Shown here: positions 3,634-62,869 of the stretch, one piece after another
How positions within the stretch are numbered: position 1 is the first letter of the stretch
Layout: every line of letters starts with the position of its first letter
NCBI GenBank assembly: GCA_022729235.1
Contig: JALDAJ010000001.1
Location: 224,001-288,000, forward strand
DNA from: Candidatus Nanohalarchaeota archaeon
Lineage (GTDB): Archaea; Nanohalarchaeota; Nanosalinia; Nanosalinales; Nanosalinaceae
DNA length: 64,000 nt
Direction: 5' to 3'
Position numbers and translations under genes: made by a program
The notes under the pieces: generated by a model
The model's database searches: none
Told to the model about the DNA's origin: nothing
The model's input: only the letters and a program-made list of their open reading frames with translations

Positions 3634-3780
3634 GCCGGGGTGACTGAGTCTGGACGAAAGTGCCAGCCTGGAATAGCCGGCTCCTCTTTGAGGTGACGGC
3701 TTGAGAAGAGCTCTTCTCTTCGATCCCAGTCAGCTGGTGACCCATACCGGGTCTCCTGGGTTCAAATCCCAGCCCCGGCG
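3634..3780 (+). tRNA. tRNA-Ser(GGA) with 58-nt intron 3674-3731
   Basis: Acceptor GCCGGGG/CCCCGGC, anticodon GGA 3670-3672, long variable arm, BHB with CTGG/CCAG helix. Confidence 0.93.
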
Positions 3781-9154: not shown

Positions 9155-9210
9155 AGCCCCCTGGTGTGAACGCAGATACGAGATCTGCTTGAAGCACACA
9201 GGAAGCAAAT
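9155..9210 (+). repeat. Direct copy of the tRNA-Gln 5' end, core hairpin (reverse orientation) and degenerate inverted copy
   Basis: agccccctggtgt at 9155 and 9211; gcagat-acgag-atctgc; acacaggaagc. Confidence 0.72.
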
Positions 9211-9343
9211 AGCCCCCTGGTGTAGCGGTCAATCATAGCGGCCTTTGGCACCTCAAGTTCTCGTCAGGGAACGAGGACTTTGAAGAGCTCTGCTCTTCAG
9301 GTGAAGATAGCCGCTGACCCAGGTTCGAATCCTGGGGGGGCTA
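9211..9343 (+). tRNA. tRNA-Gln(TTG) with 60-nt intron 9249-9308
   Basis: Acceptor AGCCCCC/GGGGGCT, anticodon TTG 9245-9247, BHB. Confidence 0.93.
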
Positions 9344-9346
9344 ACC

Positions 9347-9628
9347 ATGGCATCAGAAGTACGTGCATCCCACATCCTGGTCGACAGCAAGGAAAAAGCA
9401 CAGAACATAAAAGAACAGCTGGACAACGGAAAAAGCTTTGAACAGCTGGCAAAGGAGGCAAGCGAATGTCCCTCATCGGAGAAAGGAGGAGACCTCGGAT
9501 TTTTCGGAAAAGGTGACATGGTCAAGCCGTTCGAGAGGAAGGCGTTCAGCATGGATGTCGGCGACGTTTCCGGACCTGTCAAGACAGAGTTCGGGCATCA
9601 CCTGATCAAGAAGACTGATGAACGCTGA
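9347..9628 (+). CDS. Parvulin-type peptidyl-prolyl isomerase (PpiC/Par10-like)
   Basis: ASHILV, SECPS..KGGDLGFF, MVKPFE, VKTEFGHHLI. Confidence 0.93.
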   Translation: MASEVRASHILVDSKEKAQNIKEQLDNGKSFEQLAKEASECPSSEKGGDLGFFGKGDMVKPFERKAFSMDVGDVSGPVKTEFGHHLIKKTDER

Positions 9629-11814: not shown

Positions 11815-11965
11815 GCCGGGGTGGCCGAGTGGCTAAAGGCGCGGGACTTAAGTTCCTCAAGTTCTCCGACAGGGAGAACGAGGACCTAGAAGCGAACGCA
11901 CGTGAGCTTCGTGAGGATATCCCGTCCCCGCAGGGGGTGCGCGAGTTCAAATCTCGCCCCCGGCA
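11815..11965 (+). tRNA. tRNA-Leu(TAA) with 66-nt intron 11853-11918
   Basis: Acceptor GCCGGGG/CCCCGGC, anticodon TAA 11849-11851, long variable arm. Confidence 0.92.
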
Positions 11966-12376: not shown

Positions 12377-12452
12377 CTCTCAAACCATGACACCAGCGCA
12401 ACCGATTTATAAAGTTTTATCTCAACTGAATGACTACAGCCATCAGTGGTCT

Positions 12453-12500
12453 CGGTCGAACCTCTGGTTCGAGCCGTTGAGAAGATCTCTGATCTTCGAA
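12453..12500 (+). repeat. Two-hairpin palindromic element in the rpl18e 5' leader
   Basis: cggtcgaacc-tct-ggttcgagccg ttga-gaagatc-tct-gatcttc-ga; TATA tttataaa at about 12406. Confidence 0.8.
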
Positions 12501-12518
12501 CCGCGAGGTGAATACATC

Positions 12519-12869
12519 ATGGATAAAAACGCAGACCCAACCAACCCAGTACTTATCGAAACTCTAGATGTTCTTGAGGAGCAGGAAGCTCCTATATGGA
12601 ACTCAGTTAGAGAAAACCTTGGAAAAGTTAACCGTCAACGACCTGAAGTCAATATATCGGATATCGAAAGGATCGCAGAGGACGGAGAAACAGTTGTTGT
12701 ACCTGGTAAAGTACTTGGAGCCGGAAGACTGACAAAGAACGTTACAGTCTCCGCATTCGACGTTTCAAAAGGTGCAAGACAGAAAATCGAAGAAGACGGC
12801 GAGTTCATGTTTATCCAGGATTTAGTTGAGGAAAATCCCGAAGGAGAAGGGGTGAGAATAGTAAAATGA
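12519..12869 (+). CDS. rpl18e: 50S ribosomal protein L18e
   Basis: TNPVL, APIW, VNISDI, VVPGKVLGAG; SD GAGGTGA. Confidence 0.95.
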   Translation: MDKNADPTNPVLIETLDVLEEQEAPIWNSVRENLGKVNRQRPEVNISDIERIAEDGETVVVPGKVLGAGRLTKNVTVSAFDVSKGARQKIEEDGEFMFIQDLVEENPEGEGVRIVK

Positions 12870-39247: not shown

Positions 39248-39302
39248 ACGACTTACTCCCGTCAGGGAGTTGGTCGTCTGAGAAGACCTCTTTGGTCTTC
39301 GA
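39248..39302 (+). repeat. Two-hairpin palindromic element in the 23S 3' processing arm
   Basis: acgacttactcc..gggagttggtcgt ctga-gaagacc-tcttt-ggtcttc-ga. Confidence 0.85.
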
Positions 39303-43623: not shown

Positions 43624-44110
43624 TTGGAGGCGGAGTGACCGCCACCGCTGGCGTTCGCAAATCAGAGATTTGCTTCCAACAGCGATCTCTGACGAGAACG
43701 CTGAGTGAGGAAAGTCCCGACACCGACTCAAACGTGGCAGCTGTAAGAGCTGTGGACCGGAAGGTCCTGGAGATCCATCGCAACCTCAGTAATATGAGGG
43801 TAGGTGGCTCATGGAGCAGCAGAAACGACACGTCCTGGTTCAAAGATGACGGCGTGAATGGTGGTAATGGCGTCAAAACCGACGCCACCAGCAAAAGCCA
43901 GATATTTACCAGGGATCGATGAAACGTGGCTCTGACACCCGGTGCAAGCCGAAAGAGCGCGCCGTGCAGGAACGAACCTGCCGGACCAGTCAACCTTCAC
44001 AGGTAGCCTGGTAGTTAAATGCGGTCCACGACTTACTCCTCTCGGGAGTTGGTCGTTTGAGAAGAGCTTTGCTCTTCGATAACAGAATCGGGCTTACTCC
44101 CGCCTCCACC
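43624..44110 (+). ncRNA. rnpB: RNase P RNA (about 485 nt)
   Basis: GAGGAAAGTCC, GCAGAAAC, TGAAACG, GGTGCAAG, TAGTTAAATG, AACAGAATCGGGCTTA; P1 tggaggcgg/ccgcctcca. Confidence 0.93.
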
Positions 44111-44309: not shown

Positions 44310-44378
44310 TTCTTCAACTATCCTCCCGAAGTCAACGTTATTTAAGAATTCTATCTGTAAACTTTTCACGTAGTTCAC

Positions 44379-44569
44379 GGGTCCGTAGCTCAGCCCGGAC
44401 AGAGCACTCGGCTTCTATTCCTCAAGTTCCCAGTAGGGAACGAGGACCGAGAAGACCGCAGGGTCTTCGAAACACACCTTCTCCCCGCGGAGAAGTGTGC
44501 TCGAACGGCTTTCGTCTCAAAGCCGTAGAAGACACCGAGATGTCGAGGGTTCAAATCCCTCCGGACTCG
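44379..44569 (+). tRNA. tRNA-Arg(TCT) with 116-nt intron 44418-44533
   Basis: GGGTCCG/CGGACTC, CTCGG/CCGAG stem, anticodon TCT 44414-44416. Confidence 0.92.
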
Positions 44570-44643
44570 TTATTTTTACTCATTCCAGTAACTGCGTTGT
44601 GGTGTAAATCAGGGTTTAAGACCGCGATACCATATCACTGCTC

Positions 44644-52752: not shown

Positions 52753-53391
52753 ATGGAAAGAGTAAAATCCGGTATAAACAACTTTGATCGCCTACTGGGA
52801 GGAGGTCTACCCAAAAGACAGCTGGTTCTAGTGGAAGGTGCGCCCGGATGCGGCAAGTCCAACCTGGGGCTGGAGTTCCTTTACAGAGGAGCTCAGAAAG
52901 GAGAGCACGGTCTGTATGTCTCATTCCAGGACACTCAACCTGAGGTTATCAGGACCACGACCTTTGACTGGGAGTTCGAGAAAATGGTTGAAAATAACCG
53001 GATAAACATCAGGAAATTCGATCCATACCGTTACGAGCATATAGCCGAGATGCTGCGTACAGCTGTCAAAGAGAATAACGCTGATAGAGTCGTTCTAGAC
53101 CCCATAACAGACCTTGATCTCTACATCGACACGAGAAAAGATCAGCGGAAAAACCTGTTGCAAATAAAAAAGGAAATCCGGGAACTGGACTGTACAACGA
53201 TTCTTATAGCGGAGAAAGAAGAGGCTACAGAACTCGAGGAAGAAGTCGCAGACGCTATCATAGAACTGGAGCTTTTGAGAGAAGAAGGAATGGTAAAAAG
53301 GCATATATTCGTGAAAAAGTTAAAGGGATCTGACTACAACCACGGCGTCCATAACTACATAATCAACAGCGACGGAATAAAGATACAATGA
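52753..53391 (+). CDS. KaiC/RAD55-like ATPase
   Basis: SGINNFDRLLGGG, GAPGCGKS, RVVLD, VKKLKGS. Confidence 0.9.
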   Translation: MERVKSGINNFDRLLGGGLPKRQLVLVEGAPGCGKSNLGLEFLYRGAQKGEHGLYVSFQDTQPEVIRTTTFDWEFEKMVENNRINIRKFDPYRYEHIAEMLRTAVKENNADRVVLDPITDLDLYIDTRKDQRKNLLQIKKEIRELDCTTILIAEKEEATELEEEVADAIIELELLREEGMVKRHIFVKKLKGSDYNHGVHNYIINSDGIKIQ

Positions 53392-53443
53392 CTGACCGAA
53401 TCCGTGAGTTGTTCGTACCAGTAAACACGGACGGTGTAACCGT

Positions 53444-54367
53444 ATGACATCAGACCCCTTCCGATCTACCGTTAGAAAACGGGTAAAAAACGCCCTCAAA
53501 ACAAACAGTTTGTCCGCGGCGTCAAACGCCCTTTTCGGGTCGACAGCTGATAAACACAGCGAACATTTTGAAGACCTCAAAGAAGACCTGAAAAAAGCGG
53601 ATATGGACGTTCTCTACCGCACCTACGTGTCAAAGATGTTCCTGTATACAACCCTCGCCTTCATTTTCTCCACGGTAATGGGTCTGGGATACAGCATGGT
53701 GAATAGCCTGGCGCCTCTACAGGCAGTAAGGTTCTCAATCGGATTACCTCTCGCATTTTCAGTTCTGGTATTCGGATTAATGTACCTGTATCCTTCCCAG
53801 AGAGCGAAGAGACGGAAGAGAAACATAGAGGAAAACCTTCCCTTCGCACTCAACCACCTCAGCGCCATCGCAACCTCAGGAATACCTCCCAGTTCGATGT
53901 TCCAGCTCCTGCACGGGTTCGAAGAATACGGGGCGATTTCAGAAGAGGCTGGAGAGATCTCCCGGCGTGTTAACGTCTTCGGGGAGGATCTTACAACAGC
54001 ACTAAGAGAAGTTGCTGAAAGATCACCCAGCCAAGACTGGAGCGAGATTCTATACGGTATGCTGTCAACGATAGAGACCGGAGGAAATATCGATGAATAC
54101 ATGAGACAGAAAGCAGACGAGGCACTCTTCGATCTTAAGATAGAGCGCGAGAAGGAGATCGAACGTATAAGCACCTATGCATCTTTCTATACCGCCATCC
54201 TGATTGCAGCACCAGTCTTCCTCGTAGTTATCCTTGCAGTGATGAACCTGCTCGGTGGTCGGCTAATGGGTTTCGAGATAAGAGACCTGATGTGGCTCGG
54301 CGTCCACGTGATTATCCCTGTGATAAACACCCTATTCATAATATTCCTGGCACTGAAGGTGGACTAG
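53444..54367 (+). CDS. Pilus membrane platform protein (TadC/FlaJ-like)
   Basis: YP..RA..R, LPFAL, FGEDL, ETGG. Confidence 0.9.
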   Translation: MTSDPFRSTVRKRVKNALKTNSLSAASNALFGSTADKHSEHFEDLKEDLKKADMDVLYRTYVSKMFLYTTLAFIFSTVMGLGYSMVNSLAPLQAVRFSIGLPLAFSVLVFGLMYLYPSQRAKRRKRNIEENLPFALNHLSAIATSGIPPSSMFQLLHGFEEYGAISEEAGEISRRVNVFGEDLTTALREVAERSPSQDWSEILYGMLSTIETGGNIDEYMRQKADEALFDLKIEREKEIERISTYASFYTAILIAAPVFLVVILAVMNLLGGRLMGFEIRDLMWLGVHVIIPVINTLFIIFLALKVD

Positions 54368-56742: not shown

Positions 56743-56940
56743 CCCTATAGAAACTCAGTACCGTACTGCGCCATTATGTCCGCAGATTCGTGGTACATTC
56801 CAGGGTTCTCAAGATAGTGTTCTACCACCCCGTCAACTAAACCATCCACCCCATAAGCAATACCTTCAAAATATTCTAGACATGACTCCCCAAGAGACTC
56901 CTCTGTATATAACTCCAGTTCGACAAAATTCAGGACACGA

Positions 56941-56998
56941 AGTGTAGCCGAGCCCGGATTTGAATTCGAAGACAAGTCTTCTGCAACCAAATGCGGGC
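56941..56998 (-). repeat. Inverted copy, core hairpin and 24-nt direct copy of the tRNA-Phe 3' end
   Basis: agtgtagccgagcccggatttgaa (56941) vs agtgtggccgagcccggatttgaa (57011); minus-strand gcagaagac-tt-gtcttcgaa. Confidence 0.85.
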
Positions 56999-57014
56999 AT
57001 AGGCACACAAAGTG

Positions 57015-57132
57015 TGGCCGAGCCCGGATTTGAACCGGGGACAACTGCATAGCTGAACTACGTTCACCGAAACACCGACTGGATGTCGGCGTGTCTTCAG
57101 TGCAGCGCTCTCCCAGGCTGAGCTACTCGGCC
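57015..57132 (-). tRNA. tRNA-Phe(GAA) with 44-nt intron 57051-57094
   Basis: GGCCGAG/CTCGGCC, CTGCA/TGCAG stem, anticodon GAA. Confidence 0.92.
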
Positions 57133-61264: not shown

Positions 61265-61340
61265 TTGTAATACAAAACCTCTTTTATTCAGCACTATACC
61301 TCTATATGTATTACAAGATAGCAGAACCAAGAGAATAAAG

Positions 61341-61525
61341 CGCCCAGGCCAGGGCTCGAACCTGGGACCACGACGTTGCTGTACCGAAGACCAGTGATCA
61401 CACCGTTTCCTAGAAACGGTGTTCGAGCATCGCTCTTGAAGAACGATGCGATCTTCTTGAACACCATTCTCGGCGAGAATGGCGTGTTTAACAGCGTCGC
61501 GCTCTACCTGCTGAGCTACCTGGGC
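61341..61525 (-). tRNA. tRNA-Asn(GTT) with 112-nt intron 61377-61488
   Basis: GCCCAGG/CCTGGGC, CGACG/CGTCG stem, anticodon GTT, CTGT/ACAG helix. Confidence 0.92.
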
Positions 61526-61669: not shown

Positions 61670-62800
61670 TTAGTCGAGGAAGTTCTTGTTCTCTATCTTC
61701 TCTGGCAGGTAGGTGTTAGCCACGAATTCAAGTGACTGCGAAGCAAGTGCCTGCTGTTCCACTCTTACACCCATGTCAATCATCTTCTGGAACTGGTTCT
61801 GCCATTCCTCGGTCTGCATCCAGTCGTACTCCATGACATCCTGGATTCTCTTGTAGTCCTTCGTCGGACCTCCTGCATCCTTCGGCTTGCCCTTTAGGTT
61901 TTCGGTGACGTTGTGGAGGTCGTACTCTTCTATATCCTCCATTGTCATACCGATGAGCTTGGCTTCCGGCGTCGCTAACCTATCCGACTGGAATGCTAGT
62001 GACATCGAACCGGATTTGAGGACTGAGTAGATGTAGTATCCCCATGGGTCGCCGTCCGTGAAGACGTAGACGGGTAGATCCAGCTCGTTATTCATCATGT
62101 TGATGAGTCTTCTGGCACCTCTTGCAGGCTGTCCTCCTGTCCCTATGATTATAGCGTTGTGGTCCTTGTGGAAGTCCTCTTCAACCAGCCTGTTAACCAT
62201 CGCCGAGGTCTCGACTACGAGGACGAAGTCTGCATTGCATTCTACGAACTCGAAGTGGTCAACGATAGAGTTGATAGCCATTCCGGAGGTTCCCATGTTC
62301 ATTCCATCGATTTCGTCACCGGAGTCATTGATGACTATAGGTCCGAAAAGCCGTCCTTTCGGCTCAGCGAATAGGTGCAGATCTTCCCTGATAGCTCCTG
62401 TCGCAGTCTCTATGTCAACAACAACGTTGTTGGACTCGTCCTGGTCATCGAACGTGTTTTCGTCCAGCCCAGGCACACTGTGCTTGAGCTGGTAGTATAC
62501 CTCTCTGATTGCCGCTGTTCTTCCCTGTTCGACCAACTCCTTGGTCTTTGAGGCAACCATCAGCGTCTGCATGAACTTTCTCGCGTGAGAGATATTCAGG
62601 AATTTCCTTGTTGAGTAGCTGTCTCCAAGCTCTAACCGTCCATCTTCTTCATCGTACTCGACGTTACTCTTGGACCTGACCTTTGTCTCTATCGTAAGGT
62701 TGTCCTCTTCAGGATCGTCAAGCTGTCTCTGGATTTTCTTTCCCAGCCGGGTCAGTTTATCTACCGTCCGTTCATCGTTCTCAAATTCTTTCTTTGGCAT
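61670..62800 (-). CDS. top6A: DNA topoisomerase VI subunit A
   Basis: REVYY, VVET, GQPARGAR, TDGDPWG, EQQAL. Confidence 0.97.
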   Translation of the reverse strand: MPKKEFENDERTVDKLTRLGKKIQRQLDDPEEDNLTIETKVRSKSNVEYDEEDGRLELGDSYSTRKFLNISHARKFMQTLMVASKTKELVEQGRTAAIREVYYQLKHSVPGLDENTFDDQDESNNVVVDIETATGAIREDLHLFAEPKGRLFGPIVINDSGDEIDGMNMGTSGMAINSIVDHFEFVECNADFVLVVETSAMVNRLVEEDFHKDHNAIIIGTGGQPARGARRLINMMNNELDLPVYVFTDGDPWGYYIYSVLKSGSMSLAFQSDRLATPEAKLIGMTMEDIEEYDLHNVTENLKGKPKDAGGPTKDYKRIQDVMEYDWMQTEEWQNQFQKMIDMGVRVEQQALASQSLEFVANTYLPEKIENKNFLD

Positions 62801-62869
62801 TTCAGATACACCTCGTGTTTCTGAATCCGAGAAGATCTCTGATCTTCGTTGTTCTCATTTTCATCACCT

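Follow-up and report, generated by a model that had tools for sequence, protein, structure and literature searches.

The closest described analogue of the element treated here, a 69-nt spacer between the topoisomerase VI (Topo VI) genes top6B and top6A of a Candidatus Nanohalarchaeota archaeon, is the synthetic bicistronic design (BCD), the original paper on which is reportedly that of Mutalik et al. from 2013. The spacer (62801-62869) lies in a 64,000-nt stretch of DNA (contig JALDAJ010000001.1, positions 224,001 to 288,000), referred to below as the window, in which both genes run on the minus strand. BCD translation elements are treated in the accessible parts of PMC5995908 and bioRxiv 10.1101/2023.02.09.527918, and translational coupling of neighbouring genes in PMC12548453, the accessible part of which describes an RNA-unfolding model of the process and notes that in E. 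coli and H. volcanii coupling fades once the spacing exceeds 30-40 nt. Given such a limit, an unbridged insertion of 69 nt would be expected to uncouple top6A.

Judged by its sequence, the spacer belongs to a set of intercistronic cassettes dispersed in genomes of Nanohaloarchaeota type and is thus an inserted repeat element, and since the cassette brings a mini-gene of its own, ribosomes are probably passed from the first gene to the second. We thus hold with moderate confidence that the spacer is a family cassette which would relay ribosomes from top6B to top6A by way of a mini-open reading frame (mini-ORF, or relay ORF). The parts of the locus, read in the direction of the mRNA and with SD standing for Shine-Dalgarno motif, are:

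62872-62870, minus strand: stop codon TAG of top6B, whose coding sequence extends past the end of the window.
62870-62863, minus strand: SD1, GAGGTGAT, serving the mini-ORF and equivalent to the lone SD of relatives with a short junction.
62858-62802, minus strand: putative relay mini-ORF of 18 codons plus TGA (62804-62802), predicted product MRTTKIRDLLGFRNTRCI.
62847-62831, minus strand: hairpin 1, GAAGATC-AGA-GATCTTC, 7 bp and 100% complementary, the palindromic module of the family.
62825-62801, minus strand: hairpin 2, TTCAGAAACAC-GAG-GTGTATCTGAA, with 11-nt arms that are 91% complementary (one A.A mismatch), enclosing SD2 and its spacer.
62814-62809, minus strand: SD2, GAGGTG, for top6A, with GAG in the loop of hairpin 2 and GTG in its 3' arm.
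61670-62800, minus strand: coding sequence of top6A, start ATG at 62800 (MPKKEF...), the start being conserved among relatives.

SD1 has the G of the top6B stop codon as its first base, matches the complement of the 16S rRNA 3' end (GGATCACCTCC) over 8 nt and stands 4 nt from the mini-ORF ATG at 62858. The initial annotation of this DNA had described an 18-residue bridging ORF that stops 1 nt before top6A, and both its coordinates and its end point were upheld; in-frame alternative starts (ATG 62864, GTG 62867) would give a product of 20 or 21 residues. SD2 falls within the mini-ORF and, as had also been proposed, in a hairpin, its first half belonging to the loop of hairpin 2 and its second half to the 3' arm. 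Both hairpins are present in the minimum-free-energy and the centroid fold of the spacer, and a further palindrome spans the top6B stop codon. Pfam searches confirmed the identities of Top6A, Top6B (Topo-VIb_trans, 2.1e-63) and an L18e-like protein encoded elsewhere in the window, while an Rfam scan of the window and four core loci returned only tRNA and rRNA, plus a chance-level match to OxyS (E = 0.99).

The genome studied (G000) is a single contig of 1.03 Mb with 48.5% GC and 9% non-coding sequence, G001 is its congener, and Top6A could be located in 38 of 41 related genomes. Within the family, the 21 genomes with a readable top6 junction fall into two groups, ten of them short (10-19 nt) with a single SD and 11 long (55-164 nt). 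The former group is what the initial annotation had expected of relatives, and it supports the proposal made there of an element inserted between the two genes. In all 11 long junctions an SD just past the top6B stop is followed by an ATG ORF of 14-39 codons, which terminates between -5 and +1 with respect to the start of top6A. Metagenome contigs resolved a further 21 top6 junctions, 13 short and eight long, and in seven of the long ones (two of the seven identical) a relay ORF ends at 0 or +1.

The same arrangement recurs at other gene pairs. Six junctions were compared in up to 36 genomes, gene ends and starts being located by tblastn; an ATG ORF of at least 8 codons was counted as a relay ORF if it ended between -6 and +4, counted from the start of the downstream gene, and spacers of at least 45 nt were called long. 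Five of the junction types usually have a tight spacing (-4 to about 19 nt); of the 35 long spacers found at them, 34 contain a relay ORF, where shuffled spacers predict 5.6. In most genomes the sixth, NusG-L11, has a long and AT-rich spacer, usually without a relay ORF. All six junctions hold a cassette in the genome studied, and two of the six have long spacers in its congener. Empty orthologous sites consist of TGATG, TAATG or ATGA overlaps or of short SD spacers, and at filled sites the host SD and ATG are retained as the start of the mini-ORF, with a new SD and start at its end. The mini-ORF as a bridge that would preserve coupling, as first suggested for this locus, is hence well supported by comparison, namely by 11 of 11 long top6 junctions and by the 34 of 35 spacers over five junction types.

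With regard to the way such a relay might work, we infer that the mini-ORF is translated, that it couples the two genes and that the family spread by copying. Ribosomes that finish top6B would re-initiate 11 nt downstream, on the mini-ORF, and its translation would take them through both hairpins, melting hairpin 2, up to a termination 1 nt before the top6A AUG, at which re-initiation could then occur with SD2 exposed. Synthesis of Top6A would in this manner stay tied to that of Top6B despite the 69-nt insertion, and the hairpins might also discourage independent initiation.

As regards hairpin 2, a perfect stem of at least 6 bp whose 3' arm lies over the SD or its spacer is present in 20 of the 35 long spacers, and the stem surpasses 95% of shuffled-head controls in 19 of the 35 (mean stem 5.6 bp vs 3.2 bp). 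For the top6 copy of G000, pairing of the SD region exceeds that of 98% of shuffles. Several observations have to be set against the relay as proposed. Over the 16 nt that precede the start, the unpaired probability averages 0.43 across the family, no different from the 0.44 of shuffled heads, and reaches significance in one of 35 spacers; the SD core lies mostly in a loop in three of the 11 long top6 junctions (G001, G020 and G015; P(unpaired) 0.59-0.74). Stem counts and unpaired probabilities together therefore indicate that SD occlusion is frequent in the family and not universal. The fold energy of the top6 spacer is itself unusual to a moderate degree only (z = -1.49; of 200 dinucleotide shuffles, 15 do as well). 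Furthermore, the gene starts of relatives were inferred from tblastn and the nearest start codon, one of the 35 long spacers and one of the eight long metagenome junctions have no relay ORF under the rule used, and the cassettes are homologous, so that 34 of 35 does not stand for 34 independent events. As to means of spread, the single-contig, 95% complete genome has no match to PF01797 (Y1 transposase) or PF00078 (reverse transcriptase), and PF07282 (TnpB-type zinc ribbon) matches only below the cut-off, these three being all the mobility families searched.

One could also imagine that the 18-residue peptide is itself the functional product, and a motif T-K/Q-I-R-D-L is indeed common to the peptides of four top6 junctions. 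The motif, however, is nothing but hairpin 1 read in frame. Four of the long spacers have a hairpin of type 1 (G000, G005, G003 and G023). The core of G005 equals that of G000 over 20 nt, whereas G003 and G023 have GCAAATC/GATTTGC, i.e. two compensatory pair changes by which the stem is kept and the peptide is altered (K to Q, L to P). Peptides of other junctions have only hairpin-encoded stretches in common, and the frame of the mini-ORF relative to SD2 varies among copies, so that the C-termini differ. A role of the peptide as such is therefore highly improbable, and the relay of ribosomes remains the reading that we prefer.

Within the genome, the top6 spacer belongs to a sizeable family. 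Hairpins of the form GAAR...YTTC number 66 per strand, vs 13 in a reversed-sequence control, and those with a 3' GA number 39 on both strands together, vs one in the control; most of the GAAR...YTTC hairpins lie in the non-coding 9% of the genome or in tRNA genes. The cassette proper, of about 55 nt and with two hairpins, is present in at least 16 operon-internal copies with relay ORFs. Its layout starts with an SD or an overlapping stop, followed by an ATG and a mini-ORF of 17-35 codons over one or two hairpins, and closes with an SD within the final hairpin and a stop codon that adjoins or overlaps the start of the gene that follows (ATGA, GTGA, TAATG). By Pfam assignment, the filled junctions are:

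Ribosomal proteins and NusG: S17/L14/L24; S5/L30; NusG/L11/L1/L10.
Further operons: RpoH/RpoB; AtpF/AtpA; unknown gene/aIF2-gamma.
Others: KaiC-like ATPase/T2SSF-like protein; HTH protein/unknown gene; KH protein/Top6B/Top6A.

As both junctions of the KH protein/Top6B/Top6A series are filled, the top6 operon has two cassettes. Aligning 15 cassettes, which come from ten genomes and represent six types of junction, gives 62% mean column identity, and family alignments across junctions and genomes range from 62 to 72%. For hairpin 1, all seven pairs are kept in all 15 rows, four of the seven being changed on both sides.

A related observation concerns window positions 53388-53446, where a 19-codon ORF (MTDRIRELFVPVNTDGVTV) bridges the KaiC-like ATPase and T2SSF-like genes with ATGA overlaps at both ends; the canonical hairpins are absent from this bridge, and it has no match to the covariance model described next.

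Covariance model R1 was built from four cassettes, all of which come from other genomes and other junctions, and it finds the top6 copy as follows:

62798-62848, minus strand: match to R1, 38.7 bits, E = 3.5e-5.

In the genome studied, R1 detects 11 copies at E <=1e-3, ten of which are gene junctions with relay ORFs, and it also matches the top6 junctions of G005, G023 and G006. Across the 41 genomes the number of matches per genome varies from 0 to 21; R1-positive are 20 of 24 relatives of the same family, and in other families five of seven, one of seven, none of one and none of one. A two-hairpin pattern run over the genomes of 185,579 species matched 14 stretches, nine of them nanohaloarchaeal by name (Nanohaloarchaea, Nanohalobium, Nanosalina, Asbonarchaeaceae) and the others labelled "uncultured archaeon" (three), Anaerolineales (one) and Woesearchaeota (one). 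The distribution of the cassette is patchy and its copy number variable.

These data bear on the idea that the spacer is a host-evolved, vertically inherited leader of the attenuator or upstream-ORF type, which tunes the Top6A:Top6B ratio and involves no spreading repeat. Leaders of this type are known in bacteria, as far as the parts of the literature at hand go, and the maintenance of relay ORF and SD hairpin in many lineages is what such a leader would lead one to expect. However, the same consensus occurs at no fewer than 16 unrelated junctions here and at different junctions in relatives, with copy numbers that reach from none to 21 per genome. Genomes of one genus moreover differ at the top6 junction (G000 vs G001, G023 vs G007, G024 vs G009), and on a single-gene Top6A tree the junction types need ten changes (minimum four), no better than shuffled labels (mean 10.6, as low in 67 of 200). 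We therefore regard a vertical leader as unlikely in comparison with a cassette that would relay ribosomes.

Part of the cassette is found outside operons as well. The core around hairpin 1 has the following positions in the window:

62829-62848: 20-nt core, identical to 12479-12498 and to a copy in a tRNA-Arg intron; its orientation relative to transcription is the opposite one.
12479-12498, plus strand: sister of this core, sense-oriented, in the L18e-like gene's leader.

At both positions the element sense of the core is the plus strand. The initial annotation had noted an identity of 19 nt with the L18e leader; the identity stands and its measured length is 20 nt. Its remark that the core at top6 is antisense to the mRNA was borne out too, the orientation being inverse to that of the L18e-leader and tRNA-intron cores. 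Four core matches with up to three mismatches occur in the window, where 0.02 are expected, and the genome has three exact copies, the third within a 65-nt intron of tRNA-Arg, plus one with two mismatches (control pattern: 0). The stem of hairpin 1 being perfectly palindromic, both orientations give an identical RNA stem and differ only in loop and flanks. The loop is AGA at the top6 junction and UCU in tRNA introns. Among the 15 aligned cassettes the loops are purine-rich, 11 having no pyrimidine and four having one (CAA, ACA, AAC and the 4-nt loop AGTA, which belongs to the L1-L10 cassette of G023); the L1-L10 loop of G007 is AGT by its own sequence, the alignment being off by one column there.

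In tRNA genes the hairpin 1 module is common. ARAGORN with introns allowed made 26 intron-bearing tRNA calls in the genome (introns of 12-203 nt), including 3634-3780, 9210-9347, 11815-11965, 44378-44570 and 61340-61525 in the window. At least 12 of the 26 introns, read by eye, hold the module in the form of a variable hairpin, about 3 nt and (GA)GAAGAnn-loop-nnTCTTC(GA), always in tRNA sense, and the module is also present in the 23S rRNA trailer. The pattern GAGAAGA-N7-13-TCTTCGA occurs in 33 of the 41 genomes of the order, with 86 matches vs nine for a backwards control. Outside the order, an exact 21-mer (GAGAAGATCTCTGATCTTCGA), otherwise found in nanohaloarchaeal tRNA introns, occurs ten times on nine contigs of one metagenome-assembled genome (MAG) labelled Methanofollis, in GC-rich repeated contexts and at times beside a second hairpin of the same type; Rfam gave no match at three of these loci.

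As hairpin 1 is the module of many tRNA introns and also stands beside 23S rRNA, a bulge-helix-bulge (BHB) motif was tested for, with the corresponding idea that the spacer is a BHB-intron-like RNA-processing element excised by the tRNA splicing endonuclease. The identity of the 20-nt core with one inside the tRNA-Arg intron and the occurrence of the module in so many introns and in the 23S trailer favour this idea. Nevertheless, while the scan found the motif at the predicted intron in 16 of 20 tRNA controls, the top6 junction yielded only one weak match on the mRNA strand, which has 3-bp outer helices and begins inside top6B, at a background of 1.99 matches per 281-nt window. A BHB motif bracketing the spacer was accordingly rejected, its only match being at background level and excision thus unsupported. 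In addition, the core is antisense at the top6 junction, so that the mRNA lacks the GA...GA flanks which the module has in introns. Excision of the spacer is consequently very unlikely.

A kink-turn, the site for L7Ae with G.A/A.G tandem pairs at the helix base beside a 3-nt bulge and a C helix, was likewise considered for hairpin 1 of the top6 copy and discarded, the mRNA flanks being AC...UC and not GA...GA. Such GA...GA flanks are restricted to sense copies, e.g. those of tRNA introns, and a clear C helix of a kink-turn was not found even in these. The tRNA-intron module may be a kink-turn or k-junction, as a candidate idea.

Some further features were noticed around the module. Near-twin modules at 39282-39300 and 44061-44077 both consist of a hairpin CGACTTACTCC...GGAGTTGGTCG plus GA-core-GA, one of them lying 69 nt past the 3' end of 23S rRNA and the other some 300 nt ahead of a tRNA-Arg gene. 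The L18e-like leader (window 12400-12520) has a TATA-like TTTATAAA, a 16-codon ORF that ends before the core, and a hairpin TCGAACC-TCT-GGTTCGA, with an arm sequence repeated directly 3' of the core. The long introns of tRNA-Met (genome 92052-92328) and tRNA-Trp (921928-922103) have a common stretch, CCGATGATTAAAAC, directly after the core hairpin; by comparison with Haloferax tRNA-Trp, it may be a box C/D guide, as a candidate only.

The orientation of the core also raises the question whether the palindromes act on DNA or in an antisense transcript, be it as a protein-binding site or as a small RNA of the plus strand, with the mini-ORF being incidental. The element-sense strand of the core is indeed the plus strand at top6. 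Furthermore, the family-sense strand of the hairpins tracks two cumulative GC-skew arcs (minimum near 390 kb, maximum near 880 kb), the plus:minus ratio changing between the arcs from 16:6 to 4:13, with clusters making the counts non-independent; a strand preference of this kind would suit an action on DNA. On the other hand, an incidental ORF leaves the 34 of 35 relay ORFs with their fixed end points unexplained, the covariation of both arms of hairpin 1 speaks for base pairing and against half-sites that act independently, and no TATA-like promoter motif was seen in the top6B-top6A spacer. We accordingly see little likelihood in an action on DNA or through an antisense transcript, and return to the relay cassette, for which there remains the question of origin.

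With respect to the latter, the initial annotation had envisaged a DNA-level event in which insertion of the core made SD1 and ATG into a direct repeat and the 5' arm of hairpin 2 into an inverted copy of the target. Elsewhere in this genome such a layout can be read clearly. At the L14-L24 junction (genome 217826-217892), SD, stop, spacer and ATG form a direct repeat of 15-17 nt with two mismatches, between whose units lie an inverted copy and a sense-oriented core hairpin, the insert being spanned by a 19-residue relay ORF. In tRNA-Phe, tRNA-Lys and tRNA-Trp, the last 18-22 nt are duplicated around an inverted T-arm copy and a core hairpin (tRNA-Phe at window 56900-57132, minus strand; tRNA-Lys at genome 728100-728350; tRNA-Trp at 921850-922103). 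A further small hairpin is nested within one tRNA 3' duplicate of G001, and tRNA-Phe matches in G016, G018 and G007, as far as matches alone go, end at the exon ends, with neither intron nor flank element. The inverse orientation of the top6 core relative to the tRNA-intron and L18e-leader copies would also fit a DNA event. The order target, inverted repeat, core and direct repeat is thus clear at L14-L24 and at the tRNA 3' flanks, which makes a DNA-level mechanism plausible.

For the top6 copy itself, however, the evidence for this order is weak. A second SD and start do exist there, as had been claimed, but it is doubtful that they are a literal direct repeat of the target: the similarity between the SD1 and SD2 regions has a score of 6, which takes second place among 13 when SD2 regions are drawn from other cassettes as well, a permutation over the set of 13 cassettes gives p = 0.10, and a resemblance exists between any two SD/start regions. 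In hairpin 2, the 5' arm had been taken for an inverted target copy, an interpretation that is likewise doubtful, the arm fitting the family consensus and the copy being found by a model made of foreign cassettes only. Hairpin 2 and the SD2 spacer share that consensus at unrelated junctions and in other genomes, and hence look element-borne rather than copied from a local target. Stop/start pentamers, such as a target-site duplication might leave, do recur at both ends of several cassettes; function needs them anyway, and the SD-region similarity is at background. We therefore consider it rather doubtful that the top6 spacer arose by local core insertion with target copying, and the background-level similarity of SD1 and SD2, together with the consensus of hairpin 2, favours the copying of whole cassettes.

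One could speculate further that the cassette is a coupling-neutral selfish DNA of about 55 nt, which, equipped with its own start, SD-in-hairpin and stop, colonises the overlapping stop/start junctions of essential operons, namely those for ribosome, RNA polymerase, ATP synthase and Topo VI. Its palindromic module would be shared with the hairpins of tRNA introns, tRNA flanks and rRNA spacers, and all of these might go back to one hairpin-based, transposase-independent copying mechanism in Nanohaloarchaeota and possibly beyond, considering the tenfold 21-mer in the Methanofollis-labelled MAG. We offer this extended picture as a tentative possibility, clearly below the relay reading in our esteem.

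If the relay reading is true, nature itself came up with what synthetic biologists built as the bicistronic element, a mini-cistron passing ribosomes on and insulating the start site that follows, and multiplied it as a repeat. It would then become visible how a reduced genome tolerates repeat insertions in its most essential operons. It would further provide a testable archaeal system for long-distance termination-reinitiation, explain the long "intergenic" gaps in the operons of these archaea and require annotation pipelines to recognise the mini-ORFs. The link to the tRNA-intron hairpins leads one to ask how short palindromes can multiply where the genome has no recognisable transposase. 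Literature searches on such cassettes in Nanohaloarchaea found no description.

Rickettsia palindromic elements insert in frame into genes, and the likeness of the cassette to them lies in a palindromic repeat that is tolerated by keeping a reading frame open; they sit inside host ORFs and add residues, however, whereas the cassette would form a separate mini-ORF between genes. With the archaeal BHB tRNA introns it shares the 7-bp palindromic module, once with an identity of 20 nt, albeit in opposite module orientation and with no BHB bracketing the top6 spacer. According to the accessible parts of PMC3733652, PMC3184786 and PMC2229807, repetitive extragenic palindromic (REP) sequences, bacterial interspersed mosaic elements (BIME) and miniature inverted-repeat transposable elements (MITE) are short hairpin repeats as well, placed intergenically in operons, in both orientations and with a copy number that varies among relatives. 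A palindrome, which in REP measures 20-40 nt, is present in the cassette too. Unlike REP, the cassette has a consensus without the GTAG or CGTC head that the accessible part of PMC3733652 describes, and no gene for a Y1 transposase of the REP-associated tyrosine transposase (RAYT) type was found; unlike MITE, it has no terminal inverted repeats, its inverted repeats being the two internal hairpins and the palindrome at the top6B stop. Unlike REP, BIME and MITE alike, it has a putative SD, start and stop of its own.

Structure-dependent coupling, as in genes VII and IX of phage f1 and in gene pairs of E. coli and Haloferax volcanii, resembles what is proposed for the cassette in that RNA structure keeps the downstream start silent and the ribosome arriving from upstream opens or feeds it, and the coupled pairs in the accessible part of PMC12548453 have stop/start spacings of -4 to +1, as found at the cassette. 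The difference from such classical coupling is that the cassette would relay through an extra mini-cistron which bridges an insertion of 50-160 nt. The likeness to BCD goes further, since there, too, as far as the available descriptions reach, a short leader cistron with an SD in front contains the following gene's SD and has a stop that adjoins or overlaps that gene's start, and the helicase activity of the translating ribosome frees the downstream initiation site, the same being proposed for the cassette. The top6 copy has its own SD and start, the downstream SD within the leader ORF and a stop near the downstream start. Unlike BCD, the cassette is natural, stands inside operons instead of at their 5' end, has two conserved hairpins and occurs as a dispersed repeat of variable copy number.

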